Shown here one piece after another: positions 40,429 through 52,476 of a stretch of 64,000 nt of DNA (its first letter is position 1; every line of letters starts with the position of its first letter). Position numbers and translations under genes: made by a program. This stretch comes from a virus. Taxonomy: Duplodnaviria > Caudoviricetes. Location of the stretch: the IMG/VR virus record IMGVR_UViG_3300033075_001021. The stretch is one strand, 5' to 3'. The notes beneath the pieces are model-generated. The model saw nothing but the letters and a program-made list of their open reading frames with translations, was not told the origin of the DNA and ran no database searches.

Positions 40429-41031
40429 ATGAGAATAGGAGTTTCAATCAATGAGGTCCTAAGGGACTTTCTTAGCCAATTAACGTACACCTATGACAAG
40501 TACATGGGTGCTTCAAACATCAAGGAAGGTGACATCAAATCTTTTAACCTATTGGAATATTTTCAATTTAAAGATATTGATGAGCTTAATAAATTCATTT
40601 ATTTAGAAGCACCGTTAGAAATATTTGGTCATGCTGACCAAATGTCAGATGGAATCATGATTCACTTTAATAATTTCTTAAGTGATATTAAGGACGATGG
40701 CGAACATCAAATTGAGCTTGTTAGCAAAGAAGCTGATAAAAGCATTCCATCAACTTTTTTCTTTTTGTCTAAAACTGGCTGTAAAGCCGACAAAATTAGA
40801 TTTGTCAATAACGCAATTAAAGAATGGGATGGTGTCGACATTCTAATTACAGCTAATCCAGATGCACTAAAAAATAAACCAAGCGGAAAGATTAGTGTTA
40901 AAATTAAAGCTTCATACAACGAAGATGTAAAAGCTGATTTTGAGCTTGATTCAATTTTGGATTTTATTAAAGACGAATCTTTAAGAAATAAAATCCTAAA
41001 CACCGAAATAACAACATACGAAGAAATTTAA
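40429..41031 (+). CDS. HAD / 5'(3')-deoxyribonucleotidase-like protein, degenerate active site
   Basis: MRIGVSINEVLRD occupies the IGIDxDGVLxD position; C-terminal SYN motif. Confidence 0.5.
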   Translation: MRIGVSINEVLRDFLSQLTYTYDKYMGASNIKEGDIKSFNLLEYFQFKDIDELNKFIYLEAPLEIFGHADQMSDGIMIHFNNFLSDIKDDGEHQIELVSKEADKSIPSTFFFLSKTGCKADKIRFVNNAIKEWDGVDILITANPDALKNKPSGKISVKIKASYNEDVKADFELDSILDFIKDESLRNKILNTEITTYEEI

Positions 41032-41034
41032 ACT

Positions 41035-41388
41035 ATGCTAGAATTTGGAGATGCAATCTTTTACATCGATTTAAAAGCTTTTGATAAAGCAATCACCGTA
41101 GTCAACGGAAAGACAGAATCTGTAACAGACACTGAAGAAAAAACAACCATGGATGAGAATGGTAAATTAAAACTCCTCGAAAAATATTCAAGGACAACAC
41201 CAAGGTCTAAAGAAATTGATGCGACGAAATATGATTTACTTAAAACTCTTTTAGAGTATATTATTGATTACGACGAACTTTCTGACGATACACTAGGGGC
41301 CGATAGAGCATTAGCTCAGACTCCGTTTCCCTTTAAATTAGCATTTAACACTCTATATAACGAAGGTATAATAAAAGAAAAAAAATAA
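41035..41388 (+). CDS. Hypothetical protein
   Basis: Operon ORF. Confidence 0.7.
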   Translation: MLEFGDAIFYIDLKAFDKAITVVNGKTESVTDTEEKTTMDENGKLKLLEKYSRTTPRSKEIDATKYDLLKTLLEYIIDYDELSDDTLGADRALAQTPFPFKLAFNTLYNEGIIKEKK

Positions 41389-41391
41389 GAT

Positions 41392-42510
41392 ATGGAAGAA
41401 CAAAAAAAACAAGTTGAACAAATCAACGGCCTAATCGAAAAATTGGAAAAAAAAGATTTTGGGCTGTACTTCTTCACACTAGATACCAAGGGTAACCCAA
41501 CCGCTGGTATTGCAAACATTTACGAACACGTTAAATTACTTAATGAATTGGGTTATAAGGCATACATTCTTCATGAAAAGAATGATTATAAACTAAAAGG
41601 TGATGAAACTGGAATGGGAATTTCAGATTGGCTTGGAGAAGAATATGCGGAACTTCCGCACATTTCTATTGAAAGTCAAAATCTTAATATTACCCCAACC
41701 GATTTTATTATAATCCCTGAGGTATTCTCAACCATTATGGACCAAGTTAAAGGGTTTCCGTGTAGAAAGGTCGTTCTTAGCCAAAGCTATGATTATCTAT
41801 TGGAGCTTTTACCCATAGGTAAAAGATGGGATTTAGATTATGGTTTTAACCATGTTATTACCACTAGTAACAGACAAGCTTCCTACATTAGAAGTCTTTT
41901 CCCGATGACAAGAGTTCACACTATTCCAGTATCAATCCCTGAATACTTTAAACCTAATGACAAACCAAAAATTCCTGTAATTACCCTTCATACAAGACAT
42001 CAAGGTGACGCTGCTAAAATTGCTAAAGCATTTTATTTACAGTTCCCTATGTATAAGTGGATTACATTTAAAGAACTTCGTGGTCTTCCAAGAAGAACAT
42101 TTGCTGAAGAACTTCGTAAATCATGTTTGTCTGTTTGGATTGATGACCCAGCTGGATTTGGAACATTCCCATTGGAGGCAATGGAATGTGGTACACCAGT
42201 AATCGGTAAGGTTCCTAATATGGTTCCAGAATGGCTAGAAACAACAGACGAGCAAGGAAATTTGGTTGTTAAGAACAATGGTATTTGGACCAATACAACT
42301 TTAAATATTCCTGAACTTATTGCAACATACATTAAAGTTTGGTTGGAAGATTCAATTCCTTCTGACTTAACAGAAGCAATTAAAGAATCAACAGGACAAT
42401 ATACATCAGAAAAACAAAAAGAAATTCTAGCACAGGTATATGGCGAGTTGATTGAGGAAAGAAAACAAGAATTTAATAACATGCTACCAAAAGTAGAAGA
42501 AAAAGCTTAA
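41392..42510 (+). CDS. Glycosyltransferase (GT-B, GT4-like)
   Basis: IIPE, GFGTFPLEAMECGTPVIG. Confidence 0.82.
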   Translation: MEEQKKQVEQINGLIEKLEKKDFGLYFFTLDTKGNPTAGIANIYEHVKLLNELGYKAYILHEKNDYKLKGDETGMGISDWLGEEYAELPHISIESQNLNITPTDFIIIPEVFSTIMDQVKGFPCRKVVLSQSYDYLLELLPIGKRWDLDYGFNHVITTSNRQASYIRSLFPMTRVHTIPVSIPEYFKPNDKPKIPVITLHTRHQGDAAKIAKAFYLQFPMYKWITFKELRGLPRRTFAEELRKSCLSVWIDDPAGFGTFPLEAMECGTPVIGKVPNMVPEWLETTDEQGNLVVKNNGIWTNTTLNIPELIATYIKVWLEDSIPSDLTEAIKESTGQYTSEKQKEILAQVYGELIEERKQEFNNMLPKVEEKA

Positions 42511-42514
42511 TATC

Positions 42515-42554
42515 ATGGGAGAAAAAAACAAATATATCGGTAATACTACCAGTT
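42515..42554 (+). pseudogene. Displaced, frameshifted original 5' end of the GT2 gene at 43289
   Basis: ATG at 42515; one base out of frame, 42528-42554 reads TNISVILPV, matching TEISVILPV at the start of the 43289 gene. Confidence 0.75.
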
Positions 42555-43336
42555 TTTTGTTAAAATGATATATTTATATATAAACAATCGATTATGATTA
42601 TATATAAAACAACAAATCTTGTTAATGGTAAATTTTATATTGGTAAGGATGAAAAAAATAACCCGAATTATTTAGGTTCGGGTAAAATTTTAAAAATAGC
42701 GATTAAAAAGTATGGTACTGAAAATTTTAAGAAAGAAATTCTTGAAGAATGCAATAACAAAAAAGAACTAAATGAAAAAGAAAAATATTGGATAACCACT
42801 TTATCAGCAACAACTCTTGGATATAATATTGCAGAAGGTGGGACTGGTGGTAAAACAAAATTTAATACAACACATGTTTATCAATTTAATAAAAACGGTG
42901 ATTTTATAAAAGAATGGAATTCGGCAGCTGAGGTTGAAAGAACATTGGGTATTGACCAATCAGCGGTAATAAAAGCATGTAAAAGAAAATTGTTGAGTGT
43001 TAAGGGGTTTATGTGGTCATATGAAAATAATATAAAATCATTTTCTGATACAAGAAAAATTAAAATTTTACAATACGATAAAAATGGTTGTTTTATTAAA
43101 GAATGGGATTCAATTGTTGATGTTAAAAAAGCATATGTAATATGTGATAGACATATCCAATTAGTTCTTGATAAACCAAATAAAACAGCAAAAGGGTTTA
43201 TTTGGCTAAGAAAAAAAGAAAAGATAATAGATAAAATTGAGGTACCAAAATCTGGATATTTCAATAATAAAAATGCTAAAAAATAATTATGGAAAAAGAA
43301 ATAAAAAAAACTGAAATTTCTGTGATACTACCCGTA
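42555..43336 (+). mobile_element. Free-standing homing endonuclease cassette carrying a replacement 5' end for the GT2 gene
   Basis: Late promoter (42570-42577), GIY-YIG ORF and recoded MEKEIKKTEISVILPV; boundaries approximate. Confidence 0.65.
42594..43286 (+). CDS. GIY-YIG homing endonuclease with two NUMOD1-like repeats (Seg-like)
   Basis: MIIYKTTNLVNGKFYIGK, YLGSG, GYNI..GG.GG, 2x VYQF.K.G.FIKEW.S...KGF.W. Confidence 0.9.
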   Translation: MIIYKTTNLVNGKFYIGKDEKNNPNYLGSGKILKIAIKKYGTENFKKEILEECNNKKELNEKEKYWITTLSATTLGYNIAEGGTGGKTKFNTTHVYQFNKNGDFIKEWNSAAEVERTLGIDQSAVIKACKRKLLSVKGFMWSYENNIKSFSDTRKIKILQYDKNGCFIKEWDSIVDVKKAYVICDRHIQLVLDKPNKTAKGFIWLRKKEKIIDKIEVPKSGYFNNKNAKK

Positions 43337-44098
43337 CACGACCTAAACGAAGAAACAAAACCAATGTTTCAAATTGCTGTAAAAAGCGTTGAACTACAAA
43401 AAGTTCAACCAGATGAATTGGTAATTGTTGTTCCGAAAGACAGCGAAGTTAGTAAATACGTGAAATCAATTGACTATGCTACCTTATCAGATAAAATAAC
43501 CATTGTTGAAAATGATGGTGCAACCGACTTCTGTTCACAAATGAATTTGGGTGTTAGTAAAGCTAAATCTGACTGGGTTTCATTATTGGAGTACGATGAC
43601 GAATATGCAAATATTTGGTTTAAGAATGTTGTCGAATATCGTGAAGCATACCCCAATTATGAAATTTTTATGCCAATCATTATTGACACTGATGCCGATG
43701 GTGGTTTTATTGGGCTTACCAATGAAGCAGTATGGGCACAGAGTTTTTCTGATGAGTTAGGTGTACTAGATTTAAATGCACTCCTTACATACCAAAACTT
43801 TAACATTGATGGTATGGTTATCAAAAAATCGTTATTCGAAGACTTTGGTGGATTTAAATCAAACATTAAATTAACATTCATTTATGAGTTTTTGTTAAGA
43901 ATGGCATTTAAGGATGTTAAGATTACAACAATCCCAAGATTTGGATATAAGCACGTTAACCAGAGGCCAAATTCATTATTTTCAAATTACAGAAATGAAA
44001 TGGACGCTGTCGAAGCAAAGTGGTGGCTAGCACAAGCTAAGAAAGAATACTATTTTGATAAAGATAGAAAAATAACATACATGAAACCAACGGTATAA
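43289..44098 (+). CDS. Glycosyltransferase family 2
   Basis: ISVILPV, N.GV..A...W..LLEYDDEY, GGF. Confidence 0.82.
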   Translation: MEKEIKKTEISVILPVHDLNEETKPMFQIAVKSVELQKVQPDELVIVVPKDSEVSKYVKSIDYATLSDKITIVENDGATDFCSQMNLGVSKAKSDWVSLLEYDDEYANIWFKNVVEYREAYPNYEIFMPIIIDTDADGGFIGLTNEAVWAQSFSDELGVLDLNALLTYQNFNIDGMVIKKSLFEDFGGFKSNIKLTFIYEFLLRMAFKDVKITTIPRFGYKHVNQRPNSLFSNYRNEMDAVEAKWWLAQAKKEYYFDKDRKITYMKPTV

Positions 44099-44826
44099 TG
44101 ATTAACAAAAGAGGACGCAAAAGAAAGAATGAAATGTATTTTGGTCCCGATGAAGAAAAAGCCGTTAATGATTACCTAGCTTCGACAGATGACAAAGAAA
44201 GAAACATGATTTACAATCAGTGGTTAAAAGAACCACTTGATAAAATGATTGAGTCAATCATTAGAAGATATAAGTTATACAGAAAGGGTGAAAGCTTCGA
44301 GGATTTACATAGCGACACCCTTTCTTTTCTTATGACAAAAGCTCATAAATTTGAAAACGCAAGAGGTAAAAAGGCTTATTCTTATTATGGAACAATCTGT
44401 AAACACTATATTTTAGGACTTTTAATTAAGGACGAAAAATATACTAAACAAACTGCTTCATATGAAGATATATCGTCCGACCTAGAAGAACGTAAAGAAC
44501 TGAGTTACGTAATTGATAAAGATGAGATTGTGATGGATGAGTTTTTAAAAAAACTCGTCGACGGTATAAAGGAAGAACTTAACGATGAAAATCAACCAAC
44601 CAAAAAGAAACTCAACGAAAATGAAAGGAAGGTTGGGGAATCACTTATCGAAATTCTTCAAAATTGGGAAACAGCATTTAACACCATGGACGGTGGACCA
44701 AAATACAACAAAAACTCAGTTTTAGAAACCATGAGAAACTACACCAATTTGTCAACAAAAGACATCAGATTGGCAATGAGAAGGTTTAAAGACCTATATG
44801 AGTTCCTAAAACATCAAGATTTTTGA
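44098..44826 (+). CDS. Phage late-transcription sigma factor (gp55-like)
   Basis: Region-2-like KF...GKKAYSYYGTICKHY and N-terminal MYF...E.AV..Y. Confidence 0.6.
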   Translation: MINKRGRKRKNEMYFGPDEEKAVNDYLASTDDKERNMIYNQWLKEPLDKMIESIIRRYKLYRKGESFEDLHSDTLSFLMTKAHKFENARGKKAYSYYGTICKHYILGLLIKDEKYTKQTASYEDISSDLEERKELSYVIDKDEIVMDEFLKKLVDGIKEELNDENQPTKKKLNENERKVGESLIEILQNWETAFNTMDGGPKYNKNSVLETMRNYTNLSTKDIRLAMRRFKDLYEFLKHQDF

Positions 44827-44845
44827 TAAAAAAATGCATTTAAAG

Positions 44846-44853
44846 GTATTTAT
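44846..44853 (+). promoter_or_regulatory. Putative late promoter GTATTTAT
   Basis: 15 nt upstream of ATG 44869. Confidence 0.5.
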
Positions 44854-44868
44854 AGTAAACTAATACTT

Positions 44869-45255
44869 ATGCCTAGAAAGAAAAAACAGGATGTTAAAGT
44901 CAATGACGTTGAAAGCCTTGAAGGGTTAATGCAAGAAACCTACAACGACGCATGTCTACAAATTAACGATGCTCAACGTACAATTAACGAATTGTCAACT
45001 AGCGCAACACCACAAGATGTTGAAGACGTTACAAAAATTGCAAAAGAAAAGGGTGGTCTTCTAAAGGTTAAAGATTCTGCTATCAGAATCAAACTTGAGC
45101 TAGCTAAATTGCAAAGCGACATCATTAAAAACAGAGGTGATGCAGAATCCGCTATTCAAGAAAGAACCGATGGTAAGGCATCATTAAGTGACTTTAAGTC
45201 AATCAGAGAAATGCTAATGAATGATAAAGACCTAAACGGTGCTGTTGAAGAATAA
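44869..45255 (+). CDS. Helical protein, possible terminase small subunit
   Basis: 128 aa, coiled-coil; function inferred only from size, shape and late promoter. Confidence 0.35.
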   Translation: MPRKKKQDVKVNDVESLEGLMQETYNDACLQINDAQRTINELSTSATPQDVEDVTKIAKEKGGLLKVKDSAIRIKLELAKLQSDIIKNRGDAESAIQERTDGKASLSDFKSIREMLMNDKDLNGAVEE

Positions 45256-46685
45256 TGGATATATTAAATCAAAAAAGGGAAATTTTTGGCAACATTGCCG
45301 CAGATAAAACTTTAACACAAGGACTTCCACAGTTAAAGACCACCTCTTCCATGCCATCAATCAATAACGATGGTGATTCAATTACATTACTATGCGATTT
45401 ACTTAAATCGCTTGTTGGTTCAGAAAAGATGGAAGAAATTGTTACGAACACACTAATATATAGTATCAATGACATTGAAAACGAAATCAAGAAAGAATTA
45501 AAACTTGAATTAAAATCAATTGTTAGTTGTGGCGTTAACCCATCATTACCAGATTATATAAAAACAACTGGTATCAAATTTCCAGTAAATAAGGTAGACT
45601 ATTTTGGTCTCATGTTTACAAACCCAAGGTCAATTGTTGGTCAACTCGTATATAACGATGTTACACCAACATTAATTGATAGCTCGGACTTCAATACATT
45701 TCTATACCAAACAATTCAATTAGATGGTCAAGCCGAAACATGGCCACAATATGCTGGCTCCACAACACCAATTTTAAATGTAAGATTTAGGTCCTTAGCC
45801 AGCGGCGGTGACCCAAACAATACTATCACCGTTAAATCAGCATCATCTTTTAACGGGACATTAACCGATTTTAATAATCAATTTATTGATAGTATTAAAA
45901 TATTTAACACCGAAAAAATAGTTTCACGGGTTATTGATTTAATATTTGGCACGGTATCAAAGAATTCAAATAAATCAATTAAACAATTAGAATTAGAAGA
46001 ACGAATTAATACTGTTATTAAAAAAATTATCTACACTGATTCTAATACAATCATTGATGATACAACATTCTCTTTCACCAACGACGAAAATAGGGCAAAT
46101 GAGTTTGCCGCAAATATGAGGAAAAAGGGTGAAAAACAATTTGAAACCTCAACCAAAGTTACTAGTAGTATTCCATTGAATTCGCTAACCACAATGAATA
46201 CAAATGTTGGTAGTGCCACAAATGAGATAATCAAAAAAGAAGAACTTACAAAATCATTAAAGTCAATGAGTGATAGTGTTGCATCAAGTGCAACCGAAAG
46301 CTCAGACCAGAAAAGTTTAAAACTCGGATTCATTCAAGAACTCATCAATTATCTAACACAGACAATTGTTATGGGTATCTTGGCACCAAAAATCATTACA
46401 ATTTTTTTAATCAATTTTAAGATTGTATACGGTCCGAATGCAACATTCAATGACCCGATTGATTTTTTAAGAAAGAATAAAAACCTAATAAGGGCTATAA
46501 CCAAAAGAGTAGCTGGGATAATAATAAGCGCATTACTAAGAGCCGTTTTAAAAGAAATAACAATTTTAGTTGCTGATGCAATTAAAAAAAGACTTGAAGA
46601 CAAAGCAAAGTTAAATTTAAAACAGCTTTTGAGTTTAGTTGGTGTGCCACAAGATGTGATACAAAAAATAAGGAACCTAGAATGA
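45255..46685 (+). CDS. Hypothetical protein (possible baseplate/tail component)
   Basis: 476-aa ORF in the late operon upstream of the spike gene. Confidence 0.6.
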   Translation: MDILNQKREIFGNIAADKTLTQGLPQLKTTSSMPSINNDGDSITLLCDLLKSLVGSEKMEEIVTNTLIYSINDIENEIKKELKLELKSIVSCGVNPSLPDYIKTTGIKFPVNKVDYFGLMFTNPRSIVGQLVYNDVTPTLIDSSDFNTFLYQTIQLDGQAETWPQYAGSTTPILNVRFRSLASGGDPNNTITVKSASSFNGTLTDFNNQFIDSIKIFNTEKIVSRVIDLIFGTVSKNSNKSIKQLELEERINTVIKKIIYTDSNTIIDDTTFSFTNDENRANEFAANMRKKGEKQFETSTKVTSSIPLNSLTTMNTNVGSATNEIIKKEELTKSLKSMSDSVASSATESSDQKSLKLGFIQELINYLTQTIVMGILAPKIITIFLINFKIVYGPNATFNDPIDFLRKNKNLIRAITKRVAGIIISALLRAVLKEITILVADAIKKRLEDKAKLNLKQLLSLVGVPQDVIQKIRNLE

Positions 46686-50622: not shown

Positions 50623-51510
50623 ATGAGACAAACAATCACTGGGCCAAGTGCGCCCATGGCTGCGATTTGTATTAACAAATCCAGACTAAAAACTTATCAC
50701 AAAGACAAAACCCCTACTTTCTACTTAGAGAAGGGTCAAGAATTTCAGATTGAATTATTCAATCCTACTTCAGACACAATTCTTGCTAAAATCCAATTAA
50801 ACGGTAATCAAATTTCACAAGGCGGTCTTGTACTTAGACCAGGTGAACGTGTATTCCTTGAACGTTATCTTGACGTGGCCAAAAAATTCAAATTCGACAC
50901 CTACGAAGTAGCTAACACAGCTGAAGTAAGGGAAGCGATTGAAGATAATGGTGACTTTAAGGTAGAATTTTACAGAGAATCAAGACCAGTATATTCATAT
51001 GGTTCTACAATTACTTTAAAAAACGATGTGCCATTTACCTACACTGACAACAATTCTACAGGATATAGAGGAATTAATCACACGTCACTTGGTACAACTG
51101 GAGGAAATCCACTTAATTTAACTGGGCTAAATGCGTCATTAAACGCAACACCAATTAGTTCATACTACAACACTGGTGGCGCAACATGCTATTCTTCAGA
51201 TGTTACGATGGATAGCTTTAATAGCGCATCACTAAGCGAACAAGCCGCACCAACCAAATCTTTAAGGTCTAGAAGTAAAACCATTGAAACTGGACGTGTA
51301 GAAGCTGGTAGCGGTTCAAATCAAAAATTGGAATATGTAAGCAAATCATTTGAATACTGGCCATTCCATACAGTTGAATATAAACTTTTACCTATTTCAC
51401 AAAAGGTAAATACTGTTGCTGACATCAACGTTAAAAGATACTGCACAAATTGTGGTAAAAAATCCGACAAAACAGATAAATTTTGTTCACAGTGTGGTAA
51501 TAAATTATAA
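50623..51510 (+). CDS. Phage protein with C-terminal zinc ribbon
   Basis: CTNCG...KFCSQCG; strong promoter upstream. Confidence 0.8.
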   Translation: MRQTITGPSAPMAAICINKSRLKTYHKDKTPTFYLEKGQEFQIELFNPTSDTILAKIQLNGNQISQGGLVLRPGERVFLERYLDVAKKFKFDTYEVANTAEVREAIEDNGDFKVEFYRESRPVYSYGSTITLKNDVPFTYTDNNSTGYRGINHTSLGTTGGNPLNLTGLNASLNATPISSYYNTGGATCYSSDVTMDSFNSASLSEQAAPTKSLRSRSKTIETGRVEAGSGSNQKLEYVSKSFEYWPFHTVEYKLLPISQKVNTVADINVKRYCTNCGKKSDKTDKFCSQCGNKL

Positions 51511-52402
51511 AGATAAAAAATCTTTCCAACCTAACCAAACCCCTCTTCTTCTAAAATATGTTGAGGGGTTTTTTGGTATTCCAGTTGGTTTATTAAGTTT
51601 AATGTATTCTTTAAATGTTGTTGAATTTAAATTATACTTTGATAATATTTTTTTACATTCGTCATATGAGTAAAATATTTCGTTTTTAACCCTAGTATAT
51701 GTGTTACCTAAAAAATTATCCCATGAAACCCATCCATTATTTTTATATGTTAGTTGAGGATTAACGGGTAGATTATTAACCCTAGCATAAACGTACCAAT
51801 CTCTAATATTGTTAAATTTGTTTTTATGTGCTATCTTTTTTAAGACATTATATGAAATTGTATGTTTATTATTTTTAATGTTTTTTGTATTAAAAAAATC
51901 ACCCCATGAAACCCATCCATTATTTTTAAAAACACTGTCAGGTCTTTTTGGTATATTTAAATGACTATTTAATTTAAAATATTCCCGCCACTTTTTTTCA
52001 CTATCTATTTCTGGTATGTTATTCACTCTCCATTGTCTAACATCATCAAGTGTTAATTTGTACCTTTTACCAGAATGCCCATCCCCACCTTCAGATATAT
52101 TTGTCAGGTTATCAAATTGCCTAATCCAATATTTTTCTCTTTCGGCCCAACTATTTTCATCTGATTCTTCTAAAATTTGTATATTAATGGTACCACCACT
52201 ATTTAAAACTTTTCGAATCCAATTATTTTTATGTGTTATCACACCACGTTTAGCTGCTGATAAATGGTCATTTTTTCTAATTTTTGGTCTATAAGATTTT
52301 CCAACATATCTTATAACACCATCTTCTGCACATAACCCATAAATAAATATTTTATTTGTTTTCATAAAATTCTTTATAATAAATATGTGGTAATTAACAA
52401 AA
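51448..52402. mobile_element. Free-standing homing endonuclease cassette carrying a replacement 3' end for the zinc-ribbon gene
   Basis: New NCG...CG.K stop, then an antisense GIY-YIG ORF with its own late promoter (52379-52386), then the original 3' end; boundaries approximate. Confidence 0.7.
51505..52365 (-). CDS. GIY-YIG endonuclease with three P..Y....W..W..FL repeats
   Basis: IFIYGL......RYVGKS, REKYWI, LTNISEGGDG; repeats PDSVFKNNGWVSWGDFF, PQLTYKNNGWVSWDNFL, PSTYFRRRGVWLGWKDFL; start ATG 52365. Confidence 0.85.
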   Translation of the reverse strand: MKTNKIFIYGLCAEDGVIRYVGKSYRPKIRKNDHLSAAKRGVITHKNNWIRKVLNSGGTINIQILEESDENSWAEREKYWIRQFDNLTNISEGGDGHSGKRYKLTLDDVRQWRVNNIPEIDSEKKWREYFKLNSHLNIPKRPDSVFKNNGWVSWGDFFNTKNIKNNKHTISYNVLKKIAHKNKFNNIRDWYVYARVNNLPVNPQLTYKNNGWVSWDNFLGNTYTRVKNEIFYSYDECKKILSKYNLNSTTFKEYIKLNKPTGIPKNPSTYFRRRGVWLGWKDFLSL

Positions 52403-52465
52403 AACTGTGGTGCCAAGCAAAAGCCAGAATTTAAATTCTGTCCTAGTTGCGGCGCTAAAGCATAA
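52403..52465 (+). pseudogene. Displaced original 3' end of the zinc-ribbon gene
   Basis: Reads NCGAKQKPEFKFCPSCGAKA*, same 20-aa length and Cys spacing as NCGKKSDKTDKFCSQCGNKL*. Confidence 0.85.
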
Positions 52466-52476
52466 ATAATAAACTA

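Follow-up and report, generated by a model that had tools for sequence, protein, structure and literature searches.

A putative GIY-YIG homing endonuclease cassette carrying a substitute start for a glycosyltransferase gene in a T4-like phage

The window analysed here is the whole 64,000-nt stretch of IMG/VR virus record IMGVR_UViG_3300033075_001021 (Duplodnaviria; Caudoviricetes), and positions are coordinates of this 64-kb window unless the name of another locus precedes them. The window encodes a Gp23-type major capsid protein and is therefore assigned to a T4-like phage. The region considered (41392-44826, positive strand) contains the gene for a GT2 family glycosyltransferase, referred to as GT2, whose original 5′ end appears to have been stranded as a stub by a free-standing homing endonuclease gene that brought a substitute start with it. 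The region opens with a GT1-like glycosyltransferase gene (GT1, 41392-42510, stop codon at 42508-42510) encoding 372 amino acids (aa), with a Pfam Glycos_transf_1 match (E = 3.8e-5) under the curated cut-off; homologues 61-85% identical lie directly upstream of GT2 in approximately 70 loci, and GT1 is the conserved left neighbour. The stub (remnant R, 42515-42554) consists of an ATG and 12 codons up to CCA GTT, 40 nt in all, and is followed by a junction spacer (42555-42570) that leads to the conserved part of the cassette. This part begins with a promoter-like motif, TATTTATATATAAA (42571-42584), located 9 nt upstream of the ATG of a gene encoding a 230-aa GIY-YIG/NUMOD1 homing endonuclease (42594-43286). 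Next comes the substitute GT2 5′ end (N′, 43289-43336), a start codon and 15 codons, MEKEIKKTEISVILPV, of which the last two are CCC GTA. Spacer, motif, endonuclease gene and substitute start together form a cassette of 782 bp (42555-43336), and the functional, hybrid GT2 gene of 269 aa extends from 43289 to 44098. The start of a sigma-like gene (44098-44826; Pfam Sigma70_r2, E = 1.3e-4, under the cut-off) overlaps the GT2 stop by 1 nt; this gene follows GT2 in nearly all relatives, belongs to the GT2 transcription unit and lies outside the cassette.

The start of GT2 is present twice. The ATG of the stub is located 4 nt past the GT1 stop, which is the native position of the GT2 start, and the stub ends in ATA TCG GTA ATA CTA CCA GTT, while codons 10-16 of GT2 read ATT TCT GTG ATA CTA CCC GTA. 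Both stretches encode the peptide ISVILPV, and the sequences of the two copies bear out the claim of the first-pass annotation, made from the letters of the window, that five of the seven codons differ and do so synonymously. Its reading of ISVILPV from the ATG at 42515 by way of a 1-nt frameshift was likewise correct, as the stub is in frame only when one A is dropped from a run of seven that has six in relatives. As it stands, the stub opens a 17-codon open reading frame (ORF) with its end at 42568.

Relatives of the locus were collected by scanning IMG/VR with the GT2 protein, which returned 80 loci of 63-84% aa identity on contigs of up to 368 kb, referred to here by L numbers. The GT2 protein has no match among 50,697 phage records and, since cultured phages provide none, all comparative evidence comes from metagenomic contigs. 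GT1 and GT2 are adjacent and free of the endonuclease in approximately 70 of the 80 loci, and in about 60 of these a single GT2 start lies 2-25 nt past the GT1 stop or overlaps it; the native start type in these insert-free loci is M(x)EKTNISVILPVHELN, and the other endonuclease-free loci hold a different insert. The first-pass annotation had suggested this comparison and held that retention of both copies in relatives lacking the endonuclease would speak against its reading; each of the ~60 uninterrupted loci has one GT2 start and none has two, so the endonuclease-free relatives keep a single start. A degenerate pattern derived from the native starts of relatives (AAYATHTCNGTNATHYTNCCNGT, at most 1 mismatch) has one match in the window, at 42531-42553, against an expectation of 0.01 from shuffled sequences. 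The native GT2 start of L001, the closest endonuclease-free relative, is 87% identical to the stub (77% for the next 300 nt), and the start of L020, MGEKTNISVILPV, with its 6-A run, equals the window fragment minus the frameshift. The native position and the match to the starts of endonuclease-free relatives identify the fragment at 42515-42554 as the resident, original GT2 start.

The 230-aa ORF between the two starts exceeds the Pfam curated cut-offs for GIY-YIG (24.5 bits; cut-off 22.6), SegE_GIY-YIG (26.8 bits; cut-off 25) and NUMOD1 (23.4 bits; cut-off 22.8), and it matches the homing endonuclease family PHROG 314 (E = 7e-29). Its N-terminal domain gives a profile match to the catalytic domain of I-TevI (1LN0, E = 2e-8), in which Y4, Y15, E63 and N78 align with I-TevI Y6, Y17, E75 and N90, all four being invariant in three copies of the enzyme. 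The C-terminus carries NUMOD1-like DNA-binding repeats of approximately 55 aa, two in the window copy and three in the copy of L081. With a full-length ORF and four of the five classic catalytic positions kept, the window endonuclease looks intact. The ORF is bounded by a start and a stop of its own and is separate from GT2. No group I or II intron was found around it, and no Rfam family of any intron kind matches 42300-43500 at E ≤ 1. Approximately 28 full-length homologue clusters (P0121-P0149) are present in metagenomes. As DNA, the endonuclease gene is 69-82% identical over its first 70-200 nt (within 42594-42790) to Seg-like genes in T4-like phages of Acinetobacter, Klebsiella, Yersinia and others, and the rest of 41000-45300 has no DNA match in any of the 50,697 phage records.

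Further copies of the endonuclease gene place the arrangement in a comparative setting. In four other genomes the GT2 start is likewise preceded by a related endonuclease gene: L034, L081, L161 and L354 (identical with L334 and L353), with aa identities to the window enzyme of 65%, 54%, 67% and 65%, respectively. L081 represents a distant lineage, with GT1, GT2 and sigma-like proteins 41-47% identical to those of the window; in nine endonuclease-free loci of this lineage, GT1 is followed directly by one native start of the type MKTNIDLTVVIPVH. A native-start stub is found directly past GT1 in L034, L081 and L161, as in the window, and L354 has only an older stub, described below, together with a 68-aa ORF between GT1 and the cassette. 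The stubs end in CCAGTT (window and L034), CCT (L161) and CCA (L081), that is, within 3 nt of each other and in the same Pro-Val codons. The stub of L034 is 97% identical to the native start of L019, and that of L081, MKNKVDLTVVIP, finds its best match (72%) in the MKTNIDLTVVIPVH-type native start of L323, a member of its own lineage. The junction spacer of the window has no similarity to the spacers of L034, L081 and L161. Conservation of the cassette among carriers begins at TATTTATATA(T/A)AAA, 6-9 nt upstream of the endonuclease ATG.

The functional starts behave differently from the stubs. The functional start of L034 shares 67% identity with that of L031, compared to 95% for the next 300 nt and for each of the two flanks, and in the window the functional start is 62% identical to that of L001, compared to 77% for the next 300 nt. 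Conversely, the functional start of L081 matches those of L069 and L072 at 79-81% identity, compared to only 56-57% for the GT2 bodies; two substitute starts match this L069/L072 type. The new starts diverge where the bodies match closely, which shows the substitute start to be of foreign origin and to move with the endonuclease, while resident sequence resumes at the His codon. The proposal of the first-pass annotation that an endonuclease cassette replaced the 5′ end of GT2 and brought a new N-terminus is thus supported, the stub being local and the new start foreign.

An alternative is that the 5′ end of GT2 was first duplicated in tandem within the lineage, by slippage or unequal crossing-over, and that an ordinary endonuclease gene landed between the two copies later. 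The free-standing endonucleases of T4 are normally intergenic (PMC2988022), as such a landing would be, and in L072 a different GIY-YIG gene lies between GT1 and GT2 with no obvious stub. However, no clear duplication is present in ~45 distinct endonuclease-free alleles, although the long spacer of L069 may hold a decayed one, and the second copy is 58-67% identical (L034 and window) where the body is 77-95% identical. In L081, moreover, the second copy matches the start type of a lineage whose body is only 56-57% identical to its own, and the break point is common to four loci. A prior local duplication is thus largely refuted and is considered very unlikely.

The replaced segment is one that GT2 would not be expected to lose without consequence. 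GT2 has a Pfam Glycos_transf_2 domain (PF00535) at residues 11-143 (E = 1e-7, 32.5 bits; cut-off 23.3), and 1780 homologues of similar length are found in the protein database. The gene is a single ORF of 269 aa, alignable from end to end with relatives of 260-271 aa, and the stub is part of no product. An AlphaFold model based on 23 aligned sequences has a mean predicted local distance difference test (pLDDT) score of 73, rising to 93 for residues 11-20, and residues 10-15 (ISVILP) form strand β1 of the GT-A fold in this model. The replaced piece holds strand β1 and the start codon, and insertion at codon 16/17 without a substitute would therefore remove both. The substitute start joins the resident body in frame at codon 17, such that a full-length GT2 is still encoded.

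The 5′ location also means that the element must supply a start codon and expression signals. The promoter-like motif at 42571-42584 is kept in the window, L034, L081 and L354, and L161 keeps TATTTATA only. Further copies with at most 2 mismatches precede five other ORF starts of the window by 6-10 nt, at 2623 (+), 13338 (−), 19725 (+), 39524 (+) and 60469 (−), and it is therefore plausible that the motif acts as a phage promoter. The first-pass annotation had proposed that the cassette brought a late promoter, which would also re-wire transcription of GT2 and the sigma-like gene. A scan of 41000-45400 for sigma-70-type promoters and terminators gave no more matches than shuffled sequence. In T4, endonuclease genes have specific middle or late promoters, and inserts can carry promoters of downstream genes (PMC2988022).

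In two relatives the record is deeper. A second, older stub lies between the first stub and the motif in L034 (5167-5237) and L161 (850-912), and the older stub is the only one in L354 (reverse strand, ~1871-1900). In a set of 332 loci, every occurrence of the pattern TTTCAGTNNTNNTNCCAGTT is at a GT2 5′ end; L034 has two, and another lies in the second stub of L161, against a chance expectation of 0; the older stub of L354 is homologous but misses the exact pattern. The three older stubs are mutually homologous and lead into the same spacer and motif. Two stacked stubs imply at least two successive insertions. The cassette of the L034/L161/L354 sub-family thus carries a fossil of an earlier host's start, upstream of which a later invasion placed a further stub, and the left junctions of these insertions did not arise by simple homologous exchange.

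The stubs could alternatively be functional, serving as a short ORF or leader for translational coupling or regulation of the endonuclease. The ATG immediately after the GT1 stop opens 17 codons in the window, and the stub of L081 is in frame over 13 codons. However, the frame in the window is broken relative to the native start, stub ends differ between loci, the older stubs in L034, L161 and L354 lack a start codon and show decay, and there is no conservation beyond that inherited from the native start. A leader function is therefore regarded as very unlikely.

Presence and absence of the endonuclease is polymorphic among these loci, with five carriers against approximately 70 empty sites, and L034 and L031 differ by the insert between flanks that are 95% identical. 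It is conceivable that the cassette arrangement is ancestral and that the compact GT1-GT2 order arose by repeated precise deletion. Endonuclease loss does occur, as the L161 copy (L161:940-1611) contains two in-frame stop codons that represent either decay or a sequencing error, and L069 combines a cassette-type start (MKKEK..., CCC GTA), preceded by a promoter-like motif, with the absence of an endonuclease. Against this, the five carriers belong to at least three lineages and are dispersed over ~85 loci, each has close empty-site relatives, and the stubs match the native starts of those relatives, as expected of an insertion product and not of a deletion. Approximately 70 independent precise deletions would be needed, each restoring the native start, and an ancestral cassette is accordingly highly unlikely.

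A chimeric contig joining two GT2 5′ variants would also produce a duplicated start, and it is true that all related loci are metagenome assemblies and that the frameshift falls in a homopolymer run. The same architecture is present, however, with diverged sequences in independent assemblies from different samples (L034, L081, L161 and L354), and a 99% identical endonuclease is recorded on two other contigs, which makes an assembly artefact extremely unlikely.

The GT1-GT2 junction receives other DNA as well. An ORF of approximately 51 aa (...KWYVRLY...TNP...) is complete in L039 and partial in L007, L008, L009 and L079, and L039 also carries a 190-aa ORF without a Pfam match; these inserts lie at L039:1977-2715 and L008:5827-5977. 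An ORF of 65-68 aa lies between GT1 and GT2 in L072 (4953-6001) and L354 (reverse strand, 1664-1870), with a native-like MEKK/MKEK beginning and a divergent remainder. It is followed by a NUMOD3-type GIY-YIG gene in L072 and by the NUMOD1-type cassette in L354, and two different endonucleases thus occupy the same slot. The varied inserts mark the junction as an insertion hot spot. In L069 (5957-6045), which has no endonuclease, a 43-nt A-rich spacer with the promoter-like motif precedes a cassette-type GT2 start, MKKEKLNGITVIIPV, with CCC GTA; this locus may be a ghost left after loss of the endonuclease, or a donor type of the substitute start. The case for L069 and L031 as such ghosts was kept as a suggestion only, given that the sequences are short and of low complexity. 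At the other end of GT2, the sigma-like gene of L076 (6805-7761), as well as of L075, L077, L078 and L354, encodes 318 aa compared to 242, with an insertion of ~76 aa after residue ~28. The gap between GT2 and the sigma-like gene in L075-L078 was considered as a duplication and rejected, as it represents this in-frame 76-aa insertion in the sigma-like gene.

Taken together, the comparisons show that a mobile endonuclease cassette of ~780 bp inserted into GT2 at a Val|His codon boundary, at the end of strand β1. This architecture and insertion history are considered very probable, and a cassette that carries a substitute start and strands the resident one as a stub is, with good confidence, the best explanation of the locus overall. 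As to mechanism, the stub ends lie within 3 nt of each other at four loci in three lineages, and the simplest explanation is that endonuclease-free alleles undergo a site-specific double-strand break at Pro-Val|His. The endonuclease would cut endonuclease-free GT2 alleles at the Pro-Val codons or a few bases from them, and during co-infection the right end of the break would invade a cassette-bearing genome at the His codon, where homology starts; invasion at this codon is consistent with L034, where resident sequence resumes at once. Copying would then take in the substitute start, endonuclease gene and promoter motif, and the left end, with the recipient's own start, would be rejoined with little or no homology. 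If the left end is rejoined nearly without homology, each invasion of a diverged lineage would strand its start as a stub. Carriers would be immune, with the native site interrupted and the substitute start spelled differently. The steps of cutting at the junction and of immunity are judged only slightly more probable than their opposite.

Several observations weigh against this interpretation or parts of it. The extra A in the window stub could be an assembly error, and the pieces compared are short (36-48 nt), so that the identity values for stubs and starts are noisy. The free-standing enzymes of T4 usually cleave hundreds of bases away from the gene that encodes them (PMC2988022), and cleavage right at the insertion point would be unusual for the free-standing T4-type class. 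The cut site is placed solely from the stub ends, and cleavage, homing and transcription are predicted. In the profile alignment, insert states cover the I-TevI segment with the catalytic Arg27; the window protein is shorter at this point, as in the SegE-type domain. Between distant lineages the endonuclease is barely more conserved than its flanks (0.49-0.54 compared to 0.41-0.47), and the excess is confined to the catalytic domain; conservation of the endonuclease over the flanks was dropped as proof of lateral transfer for these reasons. Finally, the only change that substitute starts have in common, a Pro codon CCC as opposed to CCA or CCT, is present in three of four distinct cassettes, with CCT in L354. 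The CCC codon had been tried as an immunity change, being present in 3/3 of the first cassettes and 2/45 of the empty alleles, but this fails in L354 and leaves a weak hint only.

The closest known parallel is found in fungal mitochondria, where mobile ORF (mORF) hybrids have been described for atp6 of Allomyces macrogynus, atp6, atp9, cox2 and nad3 of Glomus, atp9 of Rhizopus and cox2 of Mortierella (PMC3630166). As in the GT2 locus, an endonuclease gene without intron or intein enters the terminal coding region of a gene, and a foreign, diverged copy of the terminus becomes functional while the native one stays beside the element and matches that of close relatives (PMC3630166); the three stubs compared in the GT2 locus match local native starts at 87%, 97% and 72%. 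Unlike the GT2 case, which involves the 5′ end of a phage gene, the described mORFs all affect 3′ ends, and hence the carboxy terminus, in organelles, and their endonuclease ORF is often in frame; the term N-terminal is absent from the text of PMC3630166. The endonuclease of the GT2 cassette is moreover located upstream of the piece that it brings, and stubs are stacked in two relatives.

Among phage systems, T4 MobA and gene 60 (bioRxiv 10.1101/2022.08.31.505936; PMC2988022) share with the GT2 cassette a location within coding sequence, at one conserved site and in several clades, as well as a homologous replacement (homR) of the target segment, which for MobA contains the nicking site. There, too, close relatives have empty sites and the endonuclease was later lost in some lineages. 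MobA differs in being an HNH enzyme. It divides a topoisomerase gene into two polypeptides that bear new extensions and depends on a translational bypass element; its element deletes 55-75 nt of the target, whereas GT2 stays in one piece and the old segment persists as a stub. The T-even Seg enzymes resemble the window endonuclease in combining a GIY-YIG domain with small DNA-binding modules, in having a promoter-like motif and in their patchy distribution (PMC2988022), and the phage of the window has a major capsid protein of T4 type. Seg genes are intergenic, however, and their products cut hundreds to thousands of bases away (PMC2988022), in contrast to the GT2 cassette, where the insertion lies within a gene and the break point equals the insertion point. 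MobE of Aeromonas phage Aeh1 is similarly a free-standing endonuclease in a critical coding region, that of nrdA, without intron or intein, but according to the passage of PMC2988022 on this system nrdA is split into two polypeptides that reassemble, with nothing duplicated or replaced. A full-text literature search returned no example from phages of a duplicated gene start left stranded by an endonuclease gene, and duplicated gene ends next to endonucleases are undescribed in a review of T4 mobile DNA (PMC2988022) and in a 2023 survey of phage nuclease genes. The 3′ version of a terminus swap in fungal mitochondria is thus known, and what appears to be new is the 5′ version, its occurrence in a phage and the stacked stubs.

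The first-pass annotation had further proposed terminus swapping as a general homing strategy in this lineage, and this gains support from two swaps at 3′ ends and from a weaker lead at a 5′ end. In L041 (6700-7620) a different GIY-YIG gene, of 278 aa and with a weak NUMOD3 match, is inserted within the final ~15 codons of GT2 itself, which there has a new tail, ...YYFNSDRKIQYQNES. The endonuclease ORF reads through in frame to the old tail, ...YFDTDRKITYETQIS, and this tail borders directly on the sigma-like gene, as it does in L035. The empty site of L035 (1450-1570) is 99.2-99.5% identical to L041 on both sides. The window itself holds a second example, in which a GIY-YIG gene of 286 aa (51505-52365, negative strand) is located inside the 3′ end of a zinc-ribbon gene on the opposite strand (50623-51510), and a second zinc-ribbon (CxxC...CxxC) tail is stranded beyond the insert (flanks 51440-51510 and 52400-52470). 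For 5′ ends elsewhere there is a weaker lead only, in the PolB-like gene (MYQAIGYDKK...) of another phage group. Endonuclease genes with the same promoter motif, the GIY-YIG N-domain and a cysteine-rich C-terminus lie just upstream of this gene in L349 (790-1520) and L335 (reverse strand, 935-1700), where a possible 12-nt stub, ATTGGATACGAT (IGYD), abuts the motif. The PolB-like gene of L360 is 98% identical and has no endonuclease, and several of the 29 loci inspected appear to carry one.

To our knowledge, homing endonucleases are thought to reach conserved coding sequence only by way of an intron or intein or by splitting the gene. The GT2 locus represents a cheaper solution at a 5′ end, in which the gene would be cut after its first conserved strand and a recoded start delivered together with expression signals. 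Whether substitute gene ends form a general and hitherto undescribed third route, beside introns and inteins, by which phage endonucleases enter conserved coding sequence at both 5′ and 3′ ends is judged to be evenly balanced. One gene offers empty sites, filled sites, decayed copies and stacked stubs, and the predicted cut site and immunity are therefore directly testable. If this interpretation is true, stacked stubs would record the order of invasions, and the foreign gene end and promoter would outlast decay of the endonuclease, so that phage genomes would be continually supplied with mosaic termini and new transcription starts. If the route is general, it would also explain why phage gene ends are often mosaic and how promoters come to lie inside operons, and it would matter for annotation, where a stub may be taken for a small gene.

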